DNA of 64,000 bases from a virus (Duplodnaviria; Caudoviricetes), in IMG/VR virus record IMGVR_UViG_2767802123_000001, positions 1 through 64,000 of that record, one strand, 5' to 3'. The notes beneath the pieces are model-generated. The model was not told the DNA's origin and made no database searches. It was given only the letters and a program-made list of their open reading frames with translations. The translations under genes and the position numbers were made by a program. The stretch's first letter is position 1. Every line of letters starts with the position of its first letter. Shown here piece by piece: positions 40,003 through 46,510 of this stretch.

Positions 40003-40252
40003 GGCATACCTCCCCGGTTCGGATCGAGGGGCATGGTAGCTGCGATCATCCAAATGGCCGTTTTCACGGCATACCGGCTGCGCGCACGTGAGCCCCGCCG
40101 GCCACCACACCGGCGGGGCTCACGCATCCCTGTGCACCCTGACCCGAGGAAGCCGGATGAACGCGGGGCACCATACGACGGAAGGTCAATTTCACCTACT
40201 CCCGCACGAAAACCCCGGAGCGGAGATGCTCCGGGGCCAGTGGGGCGAACGG

Positions 40253-40465
40253 TCAGAGCCTTCCGGCCTTGAGCAGCGTGCGGACGGCCTGCCGGAACTC
40301 GCCCTTCAGCTCATCGGCTGCCAGCGCGTCGCGCAGAAACTCGCCGGCCGTGGGGTGGGTCGCCGCCCGACGGGCCGCCCAGCGGAGGTCCGGGGTGACT
40401 CCGTGATCGCCCCGGGCGACCTCGGCGAGAATTTCCTGGGCGTCTGCGATGTGGCTGGAGTTCAT
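40253..40465 (-). CDS. Small hypothetical protein
   Basis: GACCAAGGAAAGAAGGAACCGACC-ATG. Confidence 0.7.
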   Translation of the reverse strand: MNSSHIADAQEILAEVARGDHGVTPDLRWAARRAATHPTAGEFLRDALAADELKGEFRQAVRTLLKAGRL

Positions 40466-40513
40466 GGTCGGTTCCTTCTTTCCTTGGTCTGTCGGTCCGG
40501 CACTCCGTCCCGA

Positions 40514-40554
40514 TGAATTAATTAAACCACACTCTGTGCGGCCGGGGCAACCCC
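40514..40554 (-). promoter_or_regulatory. Repeated promoter/operator, copy 9
   Basis: Minus strand GGGGTTG-N18-TGGTTTAATTAATTCA. Confidence 0.8.
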
Positions 40555-40614
40555 GAGCACGACGAAGCCCCGGAGCCGTACGCGCTCCGGGGCTTCGCGG
40601 GGTGTTGCAGTGCG

Positions 40615-41622
40615 CTACACGTCGGCGGACCCTCGCTGCCAGGGCGCCCCCGAGGACGCGCGGTGACCACCGCCGGGGGTGTAGACGTGGGTGGCCAGTG
40701 CCGTCTGGACGAGGTGGTCAGCGATGGCCCGTGAGATGACCATCCCGGTAGACGTTTCCACGAAGCCGAACTGGCCCGCCGGGTTCGCCTCCAGGAACCA
40801 CCACGTGCCGCCCTGGTCGACGGCGAAGTCCAGGGCGGCGTACTCCAGCCCCAGCGTCTGCATGAGCTTCTGGACTTTCTGCGTCAGCGGCAGACTGGCA
40901 CTCACAGCCTCGAAGCCCAGGTCGTTCTCCGGGGCCGCCCTCCAGTCGAACGCCCCGTCGGCGGTGACCTTGCACGGGAACATCCGGTCGCCGATCACCG
41001 TCAGCCGGATGTCGTGTGTCTTGTCCACAGGCCGCTGGAGGTAACACATGGTCTGCCGCACGTGGTCGGCGCCGGCCAGGATCTCCTCGGGGGACACCAG
41101 CCGGGCCTGGACGAACCGGTCCGGGTGCGCGGTGAGGGTCTTGCACACCACCCTTCCGCCCTGTTCCGTGGCGAACGCGGCGGCCCGGTCGGGATCGTTG
41201 GTGAACAGTGCTGGAGGAGTCCGCAGGCCGAGAGACGAGGCGAGATGCAGTTGTCGTGGGCCGGGCCGGGCAGCCTGCGCCCGGAGCGGGTGGTTCACCC
41301 ACAACGTCCCGTCAAGGCCGTACAGGAAGTCCTCCAGGATGGCTCGGGACTCCCGCTGTCCCCACCCACCGGGCAGGCCAGGGTGCCACCAGAAGACGGA
41401 GACAACCGACTGCGAGAGCGTGGAGCGGTGGTCGTCTTCGATGGTGAACCGTAACGGCTCCCCGTCCGAGACGCCGGTCATCCGCAACGCCCCCGGGCGC
41501 GCGAGGTCGGCGGGGTCGATGCGGTGGATGGCGACCCCACGCGCCTGAATCTGCCGTATCACGAGGTCAGCCCCGAGATCGTCAGGTGCGGTGACGACAA
41601 GCACGGTGGGTGGGAGCGGCAT
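40615..41622 (-). CDS. ATP-grasp RiPP maturase (graspetide synthetase)
   Basis: VLVVTAPDD.GAD.V, WVNHP, DIRLTVIG, DWR, YAALDF...WWFLEANPAGQF; TGATG-coupled to precursor. Confidence 0.88.
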   Translation of the reverse strand: MPLPPTVLVVTAPDDLGADLVIRQIQARGVAIHRIDPADLARPGALRMTGVSDGEPLRFTIEDDHRSTLSQSVVSVFWWHPGLPGGWGQRESRAILEDFLYGLDGTLWVNHPLRAQAARPGPRQLHLASSLGLRTPPALFTNDPDRAAAFATEQGGRVVCKTLTAHPDRFVQARLVSPEEILAGADHVRQTMCYLQRPVDKTHDIRLTVIGDRMFPCKVTADGAFDWRAAPENDLGFEAVSASLPLTQKVQKLMQTLGLEYAALDFAVDQGGTWWFLEANPAGQFGFVETSTGMVISRAIADHLVQTALATHVYTPGGGHRASSGAPWQRGSADV

Positions 41623-41894
41623 CAGTCGTCGTCCTTCTTGTGCTCTTTGCTGTTGTGGGTCATGGTCGGCCCGAACAGGGCGTGCGGAACGTGGGCGAAG
41701 TCGTCGTCCTTCTTGAACCCCTTGTGGTTGTGGGTCATCGTCGTGGCCTGGACGTCGGCGACGTCGACCACGGCGTCCCCGTCCGAGGTCACGTTGAGCT
41801 GGCGGAGGCGGTCGAACGTGAACTCCGGGGTCCGGTCGACGGGCGGGGTCGGGACCTCGACGAGGAGTGCAAAGGGGGTACACGTGGCGGTCAC
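41622..41894 (-). CDS. Graspetide precursor peptide, 90 aa, two cores
   Basis: PFAL and FDxxRQLNV leader; TMTHNHKGFKKDDD and TMTHNSKEHKKDDD cores; AAGGA RBS. Confidence 0.85.
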   Translation of the reverse strand: MTATCTPFALLVEVPTPPVDRTPEFTFDRLRQLNVTSDGDAVVDVADVQATTMTHNHKGFKKDDDFAHVPHALFGPTMTHNSKEHKKDDD

Positions 41895-42003
41895 GGTGCC
41901 ATCCTTCGGTTGTGGGGCCGTGCTCTGACGGCCCGTTCCTGTGTTCCTGGTTCCTTGCTCTTGATCCGCGCCCTGGGAGACCAGCACCCGTAGTCGCCGA
42001 TCA

Positions 42004-42042
42004 TGGATTAATTAAACCTTAGTTGTGTGACGCACGCAACCC
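42004..42042 (-). promoter_or_regulatory. Repeated promoter/operator, copy 10 (upstream of RiPP)
   Basis: Minus strand GGGTTG-N17-AGGTTTAATTAATCCA. Confidence 0.75.
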
Positions 42043-42097
42043 TCAGACACGACAAAACCCCGGAGCGTGAAGGCTCCGGGGTTCAACCGCGCGGCAT

Positions 42098-42775
42098 TCA
42101 GGACAGAGTGAGCGGGTGGCCCGGCGCGTAGACGGCCTCACCGACACCGATCACCGTGTTGCCGGTGACGTAGACGCTGCGCACCGTCAGCACCCCCCGG
42201 TCGTTGTCCAGGCCGAACTCCGCACGCTCTTCGTCCGTGGTGGTGCGGACGTCCGCTGTCTTGGACGCCACGCGGACCTCGTTGCCGGAACGGTCCTGGT
42301 AGAGAGCCTGCCAGGTGGGATCGCAGGCCCGGGGTTCGTCGATCTCGGGGACGTACTCGGCAACGTCCACGCGCACCCACGACTGCGATGCCTGGACGAC
42401 GTCGCCTCCTCGGGCCACGGTGCGCACGCGGTTCACGCACTCGCCCTCCCCGAGGAGTTCGGCGACCCAGTCGGGCGCCTGCACCCGCTCGCTGCGCTTG
42501 TGGTTGATCGTCTCGCCGGCCTGCGTGATGCCCTGAATGCGCTTCTCGCCCACGATGAGCCGGCGCCGGTCAGCGACGAACACCCCACGCCCCTGCTGGG
42601 AGGTGACGTACCCCTCGGCCTTCAGCAGCGCGATGCCACGATAGACCGCATTGTCGCTGATCATGAACTGCTTCATCAGTGCTGCGGTGGGCGGCAGTTG
42701 GTCTCCCGGCTTCAGAGTTCCCAGGTCAATGCGTGCCCTCAGGTACGAGACCATGCGCGCGACGGTGCCAGCCAT
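42098..42775 (-). CDS. GntR-family regulator (HutC/KorSA-like)
   Basis: LKPGDQLPP...LLKAEGYV...QGRGVFV; UTRA-like C-terminus. Confidence 0.88.
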   Translation of the reverse strand: MAGTVARMVSYLRARIDLGTLKPGDQLPPTAALMKQFMISDNAVYRGIALLKAEGYVTSQQGRGVFVADRRRLIVGEKRIQGITQAGETINHKRSERVQAPDWVAELLGEGECVNRVRTVARGGDVVQASQSWVRVDVAEYVPEIDEPRACDPTWQALYQDRSGNEVRVASKTADVRTTTDEERAEFGLDNDRGVLTVRSVYVTGNTVIGVGEAVYAPGHPLTLS

Positions 42776-42909
42776 CAGTTTCTCCTCGGGTCTTCCTATC
42801 GGATGTGGTTGACGGTACATCAGCTGTGCCTTAGCTTCCTAGGAGGGTTCCTGTAGGAAGTCCCCCAGGGCATTCCCCTGAATTCGATAAATCACACACG
42901 GAGGACCGC

Positions 42910-43299
42910 ATGGCCGCCACCAGCACTCTGTCCGACGTCAAGACGACCGCCCCGACTGCCCGTCGCGCGGCAGAGATCCACGCAGTGTGGATGGCCGACC
43001 CAGAGATGCCGGACGTGGCCGGGAGCATGGCTGACGCCGTGCGTGTGCTGGCCGTACGGGCCGCCGTGCACGAGCGGACAGGCGACGCGCGGGCCGCCGC
43101 CCTGCCCGCTCCGGCGGCCGTGGAGCTGTCGGCGAGGGTGCTGGAGCGTCAGTTCCCCGAGCTGCGCTGGATCGCGGAGCGCACCGGGCACGTCCTGGTG
43201 CACGGGGCCGACGACGCCCGCTGGGCCCCCGGCGACTACACGCAGCAGGTGTACGTCGGTGCCTTCGGCGCGGTCGGCGGCCGACACTGGTCTGTGTGA
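42910..43299 (+). CDS. Hypothetical protein divergent from GntR
   Basis: GGAGG RBS. Confidence 0.65.
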   Translation: MAATSTLSDVKTTAPTARRAAEIHAVWMADPEMPDVAGSMADAVRVLAVRAAVHERTGDARAAALPAPAAVELSARVLERQFPELRWIAERTGHVLVHGADDARWAPGDYTQQVYVGAFGAVGGRHWSV

Positions 43300-43307
43300 C
43301 GATTTCG

Positions 43308-43359
43308 GGCACGACGAAGCCCCGGGACCTGTGGTGGAGTCCCGGGGCTTCGTCGTGCC
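43308..43359. terminator. 21-bp perfect hairpin between convergent genes
   Basis: GGCACGACGAAGCCCCGGGAC / GTCCCGGGGCTTCGTCGTGCC. Confidence 0.75.
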
Positions 43360-43364
43360 TGCGA

Positions 43365-43610
43365 TCAGTCGGAGAACCCAACGCCGAAAGGCATGGAGTC
43401 CGAGGGCAGCGCCCCGTCAGGTACCTCGGCGGTGAACGTCGCAGACGCCCCGTCCTCCGCGACCTCAACGGCGATGATCTTGCACCCACCCTCAATCGGC
43501 TGGCCCTCGATGTTCATCGGAACCGTCTTCCCGATTTGACTGTCAAAGACGTCCGGAGCGAAACGAGACCCCGGGTCGGCGGGCTGGCTGAACTGGACTT
43601 GTCGGCTCAC
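43365..43610 (-). CDS. Hypothetical protein
   Basis: GGGAG RBS; follows operator copy 11. Confidence 0.6.
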   Translation of the reverse strand: MSRQVQFSQPADPGSRFAPDVFDSQIGKTVPMNIEGQPIEGGCKIIAVEVAEDGASATFTAEVPDGALPSDSMPFGVGFSD

Positions 43611-43632
43611 GGGTACTCCCTGCTTAGACGGG

Positions 43633-43648
43633 TGACTTGATTAAACCA
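43633..43648 (-). promoter_or_regulatory. Operator copy 11 (no TTG box)
   Basis: TGACTTGATTAAACCA. Confidence 0.6.
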
Positions 43649-43651
43649 GTG

Positions 43652-44167
43652 TCAGTGGGTGTTGCGGCCGGCCTCGGCGCAGGCGCCGCACGGGCGGCGG
43701 TGGCAGTCACCGCAGACGGCCGGCGGGTAGAAGCTGCGGGTCTCCTGACGCAGGTACCCGTTCTCGCAGGTGCAGGTGTGCACGCACGGAGCGGCCACGG
43801 CCTCCACCGGCCCGGCCGCCGGGATGACGGCGATCATCTCGTCGGGGCGCACCGGGCAGTGCGGGTACAGCGTGATCCACGGGCCGTCGGCCCCGGCCGT
43901 CCACGCCTTGCAGCTCGGGCAGTCAACCTCAAACGCGGCCGGCCGGGCAACGTAGGCGGCGTTCAGGTAGCTCACCCAGTTCAGACGGCTGCCGCGCCGC
44001 AGCGGCTGGTCCGCGTCCCCGACTACGAGGTCTCCGGGCTGCACCTGGTCGGCGCGGACGATGGTCAGGCGGTCCAGGCTGTAGCCCTCGGGGAGGGGAC
44101 GCAGGCCCCAGTCCTCATCGCGGACGCAGGCGACAGCGGGGGTCAGTTCGACGGCTACAGCGGTCAT
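43652..44167 (-). CDS. Cys-rich hypothetical protein
   Basis: RBS box; several CxxC motifs. Confidence 0.7.
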   Translation of the reverse strand: MTAVAVELTPAVACVRDEDWGLRPLPEGYSLDRLTIVRADQVQPGDLVVGDADQPLRRGSRLNWVSYLNAAYVARPAAFEVDCPSCKAWTAGADGPWITLYPHCPVRPDEMIAVIPAAGPVEAVAAPCVHTCTCENGYLRQETRSFYPPAVCGDCHRRPCGACAEAGRNTH

Positions 44168-44209
44168 GGTCGGTTCCTTCTTTCCTTGGTCTGCCGGGCC
44201 CCTGCCCGA

Positions 44210-44247
44210 TGACTTAATTAAATCACAGTCCGGGCGGGGGTGCAACC
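44210..44247 (-). promoter_or_regulatory. Repeated promoter/operator, copy 12
   Basis: Minus strand GGTTG-N17-TGATTTAATTAAGTCA. Confidence 0.8.
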
Positions 44248-44263
44248 TCGCACGCAGTAGGGG

Positions 44264-44440
44264 TCAGAGTGCGTGCACTCGCATAACCAGAACCTTCGCG
44301 GGTGCCGGGTTCGCGGTAACCAGGTCGGCACGCACGCTTTCGTGGGCGTCGACCGGACCCTTCGCTCGAACCACCCGCTGCCCGGTGCACCGTTCTCCAT
44401 TGGGGCCGAGGATCAGGTACTTCGTCAGGTAGTTCTTCAC
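44264..44440 (-). CDS. Small hypothetical protein
   Basis: GTGA overlap; GGAGGA RBS. Confidence 0.55.
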   Translation of the reverse strand: MKNYLTKYLILGPNGERCTGQRVVRAKGPVDAHESVRADLVTANPAPAKVLVMRVHAL

Positions 44441-44970
44441 AGATCCTCCCCCGCGCCCGGGTCGGTGATGGTGACGCCGTCCCGGACGCGGGACAGGACC
44501 CGGTCGTACTCGCAGCGGGGGTCGTCCCAACCGCCTCCGCCGCCGTCCAGCGTCAGCGTCTTGGCGTTGACCCTCTTCACCCGGTAGGTGTCTTGGCAGG
44601 TCTCGAACGTGCGCACCGTGACGATGTCGCCGACCCGGAAGTCCGCCCGCTCCCACGGCCGGGACCGGGTGGCCACCTTCTCGGCTATCGCGTCCTTGGC
44701 GTCCGCCTTGGCCTTGGCGTGCTTCGCGTTGGCCTGCGCCTGCTTCGCCTTGGTGTACGCGACCAGCGCGCGGTCGGACGCCGCGTCCGCACGGTCCTTG
44801 GTACGCCGGGCGGAGCGGTAGGAGTGGTGGCCGGCGAGCAGCGGCTGCCCGCCGGCGAACCGGCCGTACATGCCGTCCGCCCGCTCACGCATCCCCTCGG
44901 CCTTGGCCGTAAGCCGGTCGGCCTGTTCCTGGAGTCGGTCAGCCCGGCGGCGCTCGGGTGAGGCGCCCAT
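44437..44970 (-). CDS. DUF3560-like protein
   Basis: GQPLLAGHHSYRSARR motif. Confidence 0.7.
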   Translation of the reverse strand: MGASPERRRADRLQEQADRLTAKAEGMRERADGMYGRFAGGQPLLAGHHSYRSARRTKDRADAASDRALVAYTKAKQAQANAKHAKAKADAKDAIAEKVATRSRPWERADFRVGDIVTVRTFETCQDTYRVKRVNAKTLTLDGGGGGWDDPRCEYDRVLSRVRDGVTITDPGAGEDL

Positions 44971-45236
44971 CAGACGGCCCGACGCTTCGGCGCTCGGCGG
45001 ACGTTCTGGACGACGTAGTCCTCCGGGTTCTCGGAGTCGAGCGCCCAGGTCTGGCCGGTACGCTCCATCTCCGCACGATGCTTGGCGTTCTTCTCCTTGC
45101 GGAAGGCCACCGTCTCGGCGACCGCGACCCGCACGGCCTCGTCCTTGTCCGCCGCCTGCACCACGCGGGTGCCGGCTCCGATCCGGCCGCCCTTCGGGTG
45201 GCGGATCTCGATCAGGACCCGGAAGGTCTCGCTCAT
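44970..45236 (-). CDS. Hypothetical protein
   Basis: GACCAAGGAAAGAGGAACCCAGC-ATG. Confidence 0.7.
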   Translation of the reverse strand: MSETFRVLIEIRHPKGGRIGAGTRVVQAADKDEAVRVAVAETVAFRKEKNAKHRAEMERTGQTWALDSENPEDYVVQNVRRAPKRRAV

Positions 45237-45283
45237 GCTGGGTTCCTCTTTCCTTGGTCTGTCGGGCCGTTCGTCCTGCCCGA

Positions 45284-45322
45284 TGACTTAATTAAATCAT
45301 AGGTCTGTGAGGTGAACAACCC
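45284..45322 (-). promoter_or_regulatory. Repeated promoter/operator, copy 13 (divergent from recombinase)
   Basis: Minus strand GGGTTG-N17-TGATTTAATTAAGTCA. Confidence 0.8.
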
Positions 45323-45424
45323 GGAGGATGCCACGGAACAGGGTTCCCGCAGAATCGCTCTAGGCGAAGCGCAAAACGTGTGTTTTGAGCACGCCCGAAC
45401 CGGCCTCCGGATAGGCTCAGCGAT

Positions 45425-46510
45425 GTGACGATCATGACGGCGGCAGGGGCCGGCACGATCGCGGCCGACGGGAACGTGGCGCTGCGCACCGTGCTGGGCC
45501 TGCGCGAGAAACTGGGCACGGTCGCTCCGCGCGACCCGAAGAACCGCCGGCTCGGACCGCGCGTCCACCGGCTCGACCTCCTCCACGAGCTGTGCGCGCC
45601 GGAGACGTTCGAGCACGTCGTGGGGTGGCTGAACTCCGAACGGCTCACCAGCAACGGCACCCGGCGCGAGTACGCCGACGACGTCCGCCACTGGGCACGT
45701 GCTGCCCGGGAGCTGGTTGGCACCGAGCCCTTCTACCTCGGGGCGATCACCTCCGATGTGATCCCGGCGTGGCGCGCGTGGACCGGGGACATCGGGCTCG
45801 GGCCACGGCGGGTCAACCGCCTGGCTTCGTCGCTGACTTCGCTCATCGAGTACACCAAGTTCCGCACCCGGCTGGAGATCATCAACCCGATCACCAGGTA
45901 CGACCGGCCGGTGATCGACCCGCACGACGAGACGTCCATGACGCCGATCCTTGAAGTGCCGGAATTCCAGGCCGTGGTGGAGCAGGCGCAGACCCCACGT
46001 CAGGCCCTCGTGCCGGTGCTCATCTACACCCTGGCCGGCCGTGTCTCGGAGTGCTGCGCGGCCGGCATGCACCACATGAAGCCGTCCGGCGGGGAGTGCA
46101 AGCTGGACCTGACCCGCAAGGGCGGCAAGGGCCGCGTGTTCACTCTCCCGCCGAAGCTGTGTGAACTCGGGGCCGTGTGCTGGCAGGGCCGGACCTCCGG
46201 GCCGCTGCTGCTCGATGACGACGACCGGCCGATGGACCGGCACGCGGTGGACCGGCTGTTGAACCGCCTCGGCCGCGCGGCCGGTGTGCTGCCGGGCCGG
46301 GACCTCACTCCGCATGTCCTGCGGGCCAGCAAGCTCACCCACATGTACGACCAGGGTGTGAAGCCCGACGACATCCGCCGGTTCGCCGACCACAGCCAGG
46401 TCGCCACGACCATGCGGTACATCAGGCGCCGGGACGATGAGGCGCTGAAGCGGACACACGCAGCGGCGGCCGTGAAGGTCTACGAGGGTTTGGTCGACCG
46501 GTTCTTGTGA
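45425..46510 (+). CDS. Tyrosine recombinase (Xer/resolvase-like)
   Basis: GRVSE, RKGGK, HVLR, ADH, TTMRY catalytic set. Confidence 0.92.
   Translation: MTIMTAAGAGTIAADGNVALRTVLGLREKLGTVAPRDPKNRRLGPRVHRLDLLHELCAPETFEHVVGWLNSERLTSNGTRREYADDVRHWARAARELVGTEPFYLGAITSDVIPAWRAWTGDIGLGPRRVNRLASSLTSLIEYTKFRTRLEIINPITRYDRPVIDPHDETSMTPILEVPEFQAVVEQAQTPRQALVPVLIYTLAGRVSECCAAGMHHMKPSGGECKLDLTRKGGKGRVFTLPPKLCELGAVCWQGRTSGPLLLDDDDRPMDRHAVDRLLNRLGRAAGVLPGRDLTPHVLRASKLTHMYDQGVKPDDIRRFADHSQVATTMRYIRRRDDEALKRTHAAAAVKVYEGLVDRFL

Follow-up and report, generated by a model that had tools for sequence, protein, structure and literature searches.

A candidate two-gene graspetide cassette carried by a Streptomyces phage-plasmid

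Introduction

Graspetides are RiPPs (peptides made by the ribosome and modified after translation) known as chromosomal natural products. Here we describe a graspetide-type gene pair in a viral setting. The DNA analyzed, referred to throughout as the window, is the 64,000-nt stretch at positions 1 to 64,000 of the IMG/VR record IMGVR_UViG_2767802123_000001 and corresponds to the first 64 kb of contig C29 (95,726 nt) of a Streptomyces genome. It contains a gene for a small repeat peptide followed by a gene for an ATP-grasp ligase. The phage setting and the RiPP identity of this pair are well supported. We put at roughly 0.6 the probability that the two genes form a working graspetide cassette and that a temperate Streptomyces phage-plasmid carries this cassette as exchangeable cargo.

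The closest described systems are the actinobacterial TgmA/TgmB pairs (TIGR04186/TIGR04187, PF14404), among them the host clusters L002 and L003 and the ligase of known structure 9bou. They share the two-gene layout of the window pair, with the precursor directly upstream of the ligase, and a homologous leader, PF(A/T)L ... (Y/F)xFD..xQLNV. TgmB-type ligases are homologous to the window ligase over its full length and are 33-38% identical to it. The cores resemble each other in having N-terminal Thr donors and a C-terminal Asp run, but the core here is [ST]xTHNxxGxKKDDD and occurs twice, whereas the TgmA core reads TTxSTAGSKTHFDD. The carriers also differ, since the window-type pair is found mainly on phage-plasmids and prophage-like elements. 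PDB entry 9bou is a close orthologue of one host ligase (L002, E 2e-174), and this host-type TgmA/TgmB pair is probably of the prunipeptin type (PruB).

Microviridins (group 1; MdnA with MdnB/MdnC) resemble the system predicted here: they depend on ATP-grasp macrocyclization directed by a Pro-hydrophobic leader motif, link Thr, Ser or Lys to the side chains of Asp or Glu, and yield protease inhibitors. Unlike the microviridin systems, the window pair has one ligase instead of two, has neither a GNAT enzyme nor an ATP-binding cassette transporter, and lacks a TxKxPSDx(D/E)(D/E) core. Its ligase scored 127 bits on the MvdC model and 95 bits on the MvdD model, short of the cut-offs of 425 and 475 for microviridin membership.

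The nearest precedent for the topology proposed here comes from the graspimiditides (group 13: fuscimiditide, amycolimiditide and albusimiditide), which are actinobacterial. Their cores are stem-loops in which Thr or Ser of the N-terminal strand is esterified to Asp or Glu of the C-terminal strand (bioRxiv 10.1101/2023.06.21.545981). The window cores are much shorter and have no conserved Asp-Gly aspartimide site in the loop. The pair also differs in lacking an adjacent gene for a PIMT-type O-methyltransferase, the criterion for group 13; we found no methyltransferase match among the GntR/UTRA regulator, the 70-residue open reading frame (ORF), the portal protein and the 129-residue ORF nearby. 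A 2026 preprint presents graspetide clusters in integrative and conjugative elements of Porphyromonas (P. gingivalis) as newly recognized mobile cargo (bioRxiv 10.64898/2026.08.04.741601). Those P. gingivalis clusters are also accessory cargo of a mobile element, but they are of the grasp-with-SPASM type and are accompanied by secretion genes.

The window peptide itself has been listed before. The supplement of Makarova et al. 2022 (PMC8939145) gives the exact peptide and its coordinates, on record JOCT01000029.1 of Streptomyces sp. NRRL S-455, as a predicted precursor forming the singleton 'cluster6377', without discussion; phages are not mentioned in that paper. A full-text literature search on graspetides and phages returned no description of phage-borne graspetides. 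The core was absent from the supplementary files of the 2026 RODEO update (PMC13097080) that were searched, which does not establish its absence from that data set. The chemistry proposed here is of a known kind; the core, the ligase branch and the phage carriage are not described in the literature searched.

Results

Precursor peptide

The precursor gene translates to a 90-residue peptide (Table 1) whose leader contains PFALL at residues 7-11 and FDRLRQLNV at residues 27-35. An earlier note, written from the letters of the window alone, had described such a peptide with a PFAL / FDxxRQLNV leader, joined to its ligase through a TGATG overlap; both points were borne out. One base is common to the TGA of the precursor and the ATG of the ligase (41624-41620). 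PMC8939145 defines a 'Phhx(1,2)h' leader motif, with which PFALL agrees. The start codon is GTG, three homologues have ATG at the aligned position, and a GAAGGA Shine-Dalgarno sequence is invariant upstream of the aligned starts. With a Phhx(1,2)h-type leader and a core that offers Thr/Ser/Lys donors and Asp/Glu acceptors, the peptide has the features of a graspetide-class precursor.

We searched 5.8 billion proteins and found 24 clusters of precursor homologues at 56-84% identity, nearly all of about 90 residues and several on contigs of 92.7-95.7 kb. Both cores are present across these clusters, save for one homologue (P0026) in which core 1 is decayed. The core consensus is [ST]xTHNxxGxKKDDD, in which T, H, N, KK and DDD vary little or not at all; the same holds for PFALL in the leader. 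The earlier note had read both cores as TMTHNxKxxKKDDD. The two repeats, at residues 51-65 and 76-90, stand; the mid-core Lys of that motif is not conserved in core 2 over the 24 clusters. Ratios of nonsynonymous to synonymous substitution rates (dN/dS), which are rough values from short segments, were 0.41 for the leader, 0.42 for core 1, 0.47 for core 2 and 0.85 for the linker. This pattern fits a functional peptide.

The leader is homologous to those of the host's tgmA-type (Strep_pep/TgmA) precursors, to which hhalign matched residues 5-46 with a probability of 93.9% (E 1.6e-7). PF14404 was matched by 20 of the 24 family members, all weakly. No named family model matched the core above threshold, in keeping with the earlier remark that its motif was unfamiliar; what that remark had missed was the Strep_pep/TgmA homology of the leader and the previous listing as cluster6377.

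ATP-grasp ligase

The best NCBIfam model for the ligase is TIGR04187, 'ATP-grasp ribosomal peptide maturase' (E 3.8e-73), followed by the MvdC and MvdD models. Its matches in the PDB include 9bou (1.5e-38), MdnB (5ig8, 7e-32), AMdnB, MdnC (5ig9), CdnC and PsnB, as well as 7mgv and 7drm. These results agree with the earlier assignment to the graspetide-type ligases. An alignment of 18 ligases shows no variation at K161, R206, D226/R228, D265 and E278-x-N280, which are the residues expected to serve in nucleotide and metal binding. The enzyme is thus of the MdnB/MdnC/TgmB type with its predicted nucleotide- and metal-binding residues intact.

On TIGR04187 the window ligase scored 246 bits and its family 246-262 bits, compared with 360-408 bits for the host paralogues; the curated cut-off for TgmB / GRASP_SAV_5884 membership is 350 bits. 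Standard family thresholds therefore miss these ligases, which sequence comparison places in a divergent branch with its own C-terminal tail. The tail, VYTPGGGHRASSG (window 40615-40710, about residues 305-335), is common to the family ligases and is also present in the ligase of a 43%-identical, single-core relative; TgmB-type ligases are without it. In a library clustered at 50% identity, the relatives of the ligase comprised one representative at 62%, three at 43-45% and a bulk at 30-40%.

We asked whether the enzyme could instead act on another substrate, as an amide ligase of the RimK-like or small-molecule kind, with the repeat peptide being an unrelated ORF. Its sole PHROGs match is the RimK-like phrog_2599 (E 3e-13), and there is no Pfam match. 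The best matches by far are RiPP maturases, however: the ligase scored 246 bits on TIGR04187 against 37 bits on rimK_fam, and the PDB matches are graspetide ligases. The ORF is translationally coupled to the ligase in all copies, and its leader is homologous to those of known graspetide precursors. We regard it as very improbable that the peptide is not the substrate.

A phage-plasmid and its relatives

We identified genes for terminase, portal, capsid and tape measure proteins on C29, along with ParA, ParB, a P4-type primase (outside the window) and an integrase, by tblastn with proteins of the relative pS1D4-14.2. This annotated 98.8-kb plasmid encodes terminase, portal, major capsid, tape measure, ParA, ParB, P4-family primase, tyrosine recombinase and WhiB proteins, and the C29 counterparts are 56-85% identical. 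The first and last 99 nt of C29 are identical and C29 matches none of the other contigs of the genome, so that it closes into a circle of about 95.6 kb. With virion and packaging genes and partition and replication genes on one extrachromosomal replicon, C29 is a phage-plasmid, known from its genes.

The pair sits in a variable stretch between the integrase and portal genes. Four IMG/VR viral genomes (92.6-95.7 kb) hold close copies in the same slot, three of the four with a GntR gene and three of the four with the promoter-like TTAATTAA module described below. The earlier description of the pair as phage-borne is in line with these copies and with the circular phage-plasmid. Slot and translational coupling are kept in five phage-plasmids, among which the ligases have diverged to 78% identity. 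A phage-like plasmid of Streptomyces sp. GDS52 carries the pair at another location, where it follows genes for an XRE regulator and an integrase and faces those for holin and amidase. It shares just one block with the window (40566-41944, 1.38 kb, 82% identity), the homology starting at 41944. Copies further removed, whose ligases show 62-64% identity, are found on chromosomes and lie beside DUF397/HTH_31-DUF5753 pairs, a phage-like replication initiator or an endolysin. The DUF397/DUF5753 pairs match a report that such pairs co-occur with graspetide groups 11 and 13 (PMC13097080).

Among genomes of other Streptomyces species, 1 of 400 had a ligase more than 60% identical and 1 of 400 had a 43% relative; the homologues are not the common chromosomal clusters of a known group that the earlier note had named as speaking against its proposal. 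A phage collection gave no DNA match to the locus and just two distant ATP-grasp proteins (26-28% identical, from a Leptospira phage and a gut phage). PLSDB plasmids held no copy of the family, with a best ligase identity of 38%. On these searches, the pair is rare and mostly phage-associated.

This distribution raises the question of whether the pair is merely drifting or selfish, a module that moves as a passenger from one Streptomyces mobile element to another and does nothing at present for the phage-plasmid. Such a module would be patchy, as the pair is (it is missing from the close relative pS1D4-14.2), and rare in the genus; it would appear on several backbones with just the 1.38-kb block in common, and a copy with a decayed core 1 would not be surprising. 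Every copy read nevertheless has both genes intact, the leader and cores (unlike the linker) have dN/dS values well below 1, the catalytic residues of the ligase are invariant, and slot and coupling have persisted in the five phage-plasmids despite the divergence of their ligases. We therefore consider a passenger without a role improbable.

Other graspetide genes were observed in and around this lineage. The host chromosome has three further pairs (L002, G000:C20; L003, G000:C21; L004, G000:C30), two of Strep_pep type with cores ending TAGSKTHFDD and one with a Ser/Asp-rich core. Their ligases score above the TIGR04187 cut-off and share 35-38% identity with that of the phage-plasmid. Plasmid unnamed3 of Streptomyces sp. 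NBC_01240 (NZ_CP108500.1; L010/L024), an 88.5-kb circle with terminase, capsid and tape measure genes and ParB, carries a tgmA-type pair. This pair is also mobile-element cargo, but it has a single TTSTAGSATHNDDD core and a ligase just 38% identical to that of the window. A 139.8-kb IMG/VR viral contig (L023) has a graspetide pair whose core is different again and whose ligase is 35% identical. Streptomyces phages may thus carry graspetide cargo recurrently. A locus in GCA_042892135.1 (L017, 3861-4954) encodes a 43%-identical ligase and a 45-residue single-core precursor that ends in SYTHNSSGHKKDDD and shows the same core motif; as called, this precursor lacks PFALL, and the locus adjoins a DUF397/DUF5753 pair. 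Another ligase (P0031, 44% identical), from an ENA contig, is flanked by a 42-residue ORF and a gene for a ClpP protease, and its precursor was not readable. The ClpP gene may point to a target or to a gene for self-resistance.

Transcription unit and neighbouring genes

The precursor-ligase pair forms a bracketed transcription unit that consists of a TTAATTAA module, a 110-nt leader, the precursor, the coupled ligase and a terminator hairpin (Table 1). The hairpin has no U-run and was therefore missed by a simple terminator scan. The 5' untranslated region contains a local hairpin at about 41914-41934, and its fold as a whole is no more stable than that of shuffled sequences (z -0.09).

The TTAATTAA octamer occurs 10 times in the window, where 0 copies are expected (positions 2620, 6326, 6867, 7909, 12215, 13022, 40518, 42008, 44214 and 45288). 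All 15 copies in the 8.2-Mb genome are on C29, the others at 64970, 87948, 89751, 92280 and 94781. The copies share a context, often a hairpin, then GGGGTTG, about 17 nt, TGATTTAATTAAGTCATCGGG, a conserved AGGAAC-rich leader and a start codon. At least 11 modules of the TTAATTAA type are present in pS1D4-14.2, and the module is kept upstream of the precursor in four related loci (L014, L019, L021 and L022). These modules are probably the element's own promoter/operator set. From its position and architecture, we infer that the one upstream of the precursor serves as a promoter whose palindromic operator overlies an extended -10-like box; a strict sigma-70 scan does not call it.

The direct neighbours of the pair are the GntR/UTRA regulator gene, the 70-residue ORF and the portal gene; the 129-residue ORF also lies nearby. 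No protease, exporter or transporter, immunity or tailoring gene adjoins the pair, in agreement with the earlier note as far as protease and transporter are concerned. The GntR/UTRA gene product may regulate the unit or the element. A GntR gene is found beside the cassette in L013, L014, L019 and L021, and not in L022, L005, L007 and L008. GntR is unlikely to bind the TTAATTAA palindrome, since pS1D4-14.2 has the same modules with an XRE gene in the GntR slot.

The constant company of regulators is relevant to another explanation, in which the cassette is cargo for lysogenic conversion or exclusion: the peptide would be made in the lysogen and would benefit the host together with its element rather than lytic growth. 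A protease, or some other step on which competing phages depend, such as capsid maturation, could be blocked by it, or it could be released and act on neighbouring microbes. The cassette always lies in an accessory region with integrase and regulator genes, and a regulator always adjoins it (GntR, XRE, HTH_31-DUF5753/DUF397 or HTH_31-TPR). On the GDS52 plasmid it begins just 52 nt after the XRE regulator gene, a spacing that suggests co-transcription with a repressor-like gene. Chromosomal copies, moreover, persist away from the phage-plasmid backbone. Against these points stand the absence of an exporter or immunity gene, the lack of any PADLOC match and the unit's possession of its own module, of a type common to many small phage genes; should that TTAATTAA module be under repressor control, the lysogen would not express the unit. 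We view conversion or exclusion cargo as a real possibility, on the unlikely side.

Further features of the region were noted. The stretch 40150-45400 is a stack of small, separately bracketed units (the 70-residue ORF, the graspetide pair, GntR, and ORFs of 129, 81, 171, 177 (DUF3560) and 88 residues), and its gene content varies among related phage-plasmids. The relative pS1D4-14.2 is without the graspetide pair; its slot is occupied by an XRE regulator, a PH-domain gene and a gene of 243 residues, and it has no DNA homology with the window from about 40152 to about 42894. An inverted repeat, CTTCCTAGGAG...CCTGTAGGAAG, lies in 42820-42910 between the divergent GntR and 129-residue genes and may be a GntR operator. 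The GTTCCTGT sequence of this intergenic region also occurs in the 5' leader of the precursor.

Table 1. Coordinates of features in the window.
Feature	Position	Strand	Remarks
Promoter/operator-like module	42005..42040	-	GGTTGC (-35-like), 17-nt spacer, TTTAATTAA with imperfect palindrome GGATTAATTAAACC
5' untranslated region	41895..42004	-	110 nt; AGGAAC-repeat leader as in other modules; GAAGGA Shine-Dalgarno
Graspetide precursor gene	41622..41894	-	90 residues plus stop
Precursor leader	41745-41894	-	residues 1-50
Precursor core 1	41700-41744	-	residues 51-65; TTMTHNHKGFKKDDD
Precursor linker	41670-41699	-	10 residues
Precursor core 2	41625-41669	-	residues 76-90; PTMTHNSKEHKKDDD; very C terminus of the peptide
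ATP-grasp peptide ligase (predicted macrocyclase)	40615..41622	-	335 residues; start overlaps precursor stop (TGATG)
Terminator-like GC-rich hairpin closing the two-gene unit	40564..40596	-	-44.6 kcal/mol; z -5.0; 0 of 200 shuffles as stable
GC-rich terminator hairpin of upstream GntR gene	42056-42083		z -3.9
GntR/UTRA (HutC-type) regulator	42098..42820	-	directly upstream of pair; Pfam GntR 1.1e-13, UTRA 3.1e-05
Portal gene	40002-38173	-	
Integrase	45479-46507	+	
ParA	12138-11365		
ParB	61699-61169		

Discussion

We propose that the pair makes a cross-linked peptide. The ligase would dock on the leader through PFALL and FDRLRQLNV and, by analogy with solved graspetide ligases, would activate Asp side chains of each C-terminal DDD as acyl-phosphates. 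The activated Asp residues would be joined as omega-esters to the hydroxyl groups of Thr in positions 1 and 3 of the core, with a Lys amide also possible, and each core of 14-15 residues would become a cross-braced hairpin. The predicted mass loss is 2-3 x 18 Da per core, or 4-6 such losses in all. As no cognate protease or exporter was found, the product would be expected to stay in the cytoplasm, with its leader attached or trimmed by host peptidases, until lysis.

Several observations weigh against a working cassette of this kind. The ligase is below every NCBIfam curated cut-off and has no Pfam match at E <= 0.01. The window precursor reached 19.0 bits on PF14404 and 16.1 bits on TIGR04186, in the leader alone, where the cut-off is 25 bits. 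The comparison with graspetide family models that the earlier note had suggested thus gave TIGR04187 as the best model and a homologous leader, with the cut-offs of TIGR04187, TIGR04186 and PF14404 all unreached. The AlphaFold2 model of the precursor alignment was poor (mean predicted local distance difference test score 61.8), and this low-confidence model showed just a weak hairpin in core 1 (residues 53-56/59-62). The proposed cross-link pattern is read from residue conservation, and the decayed first core of P0026 indicates that two cores are not obligatory. PADLOC matched neither the ligase, the precursor nor five neighbours. The strict sigma-70 consensus scan found no promoter in 40200-42950, the TTAATTAA module included, and the module is missing upstream of the S. 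africanus copy. The earlier statement that the pair lies behind the phage's own promoter/operator draws on the position and architecture of the module, whose 15 copies are all on C29, and not on the promoter scan.

What the peptide might do can be discussed by analogy. Characterised graspetides are protease inhibitors (bioRxiv 10.64898/2026.08.04.741601; PMC11626197), and our guess is that this one, too, may be a tight-binding inhibitor. The basic KK face of the cores suggests a trypsin-like or other Lys/Arg-directed target. Nothing in the analysis indicates a particular target. The earlier note had put forward, as an inference, a peptide that stays in the cell, is made with an early or accessory regulon and possibly inhibits host proteases or defences. 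Such an inhibitor would serve the element in host takeover or in competition with other phages. The pair might, further, belong to a largely phage-borne graspetide branch that makes a double-headed, cross-linked peptide during infection or lysogeny, inside the cell, as an effector in conflicts of the phage with its host or with other phages. Possible targets would be a host protease, of defence or of housekeeping, or the protease with which rival phages mature. We hold this extension of our reading to be doubtful. If true, it would provide the first RiPP of the graspetide class with a role in the phage life cycle.

The unit described here is a minimal precursor-ligase pair, with no genes for export or leader removal, that moves as a 1.4-kb module among phage-plasmids and prophage-like elements of Streptomyces. 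Provided that the peptide is made, its use is probably intracellular or follows its release at lysis, which would make it a candidate phage effector or exclusion factor. The pair would also add a short, duplicated core ([ST]xTHNxxGxKKDDD) and a ligase branch to a class of peptides valued for stable, engineerable scaffolds.

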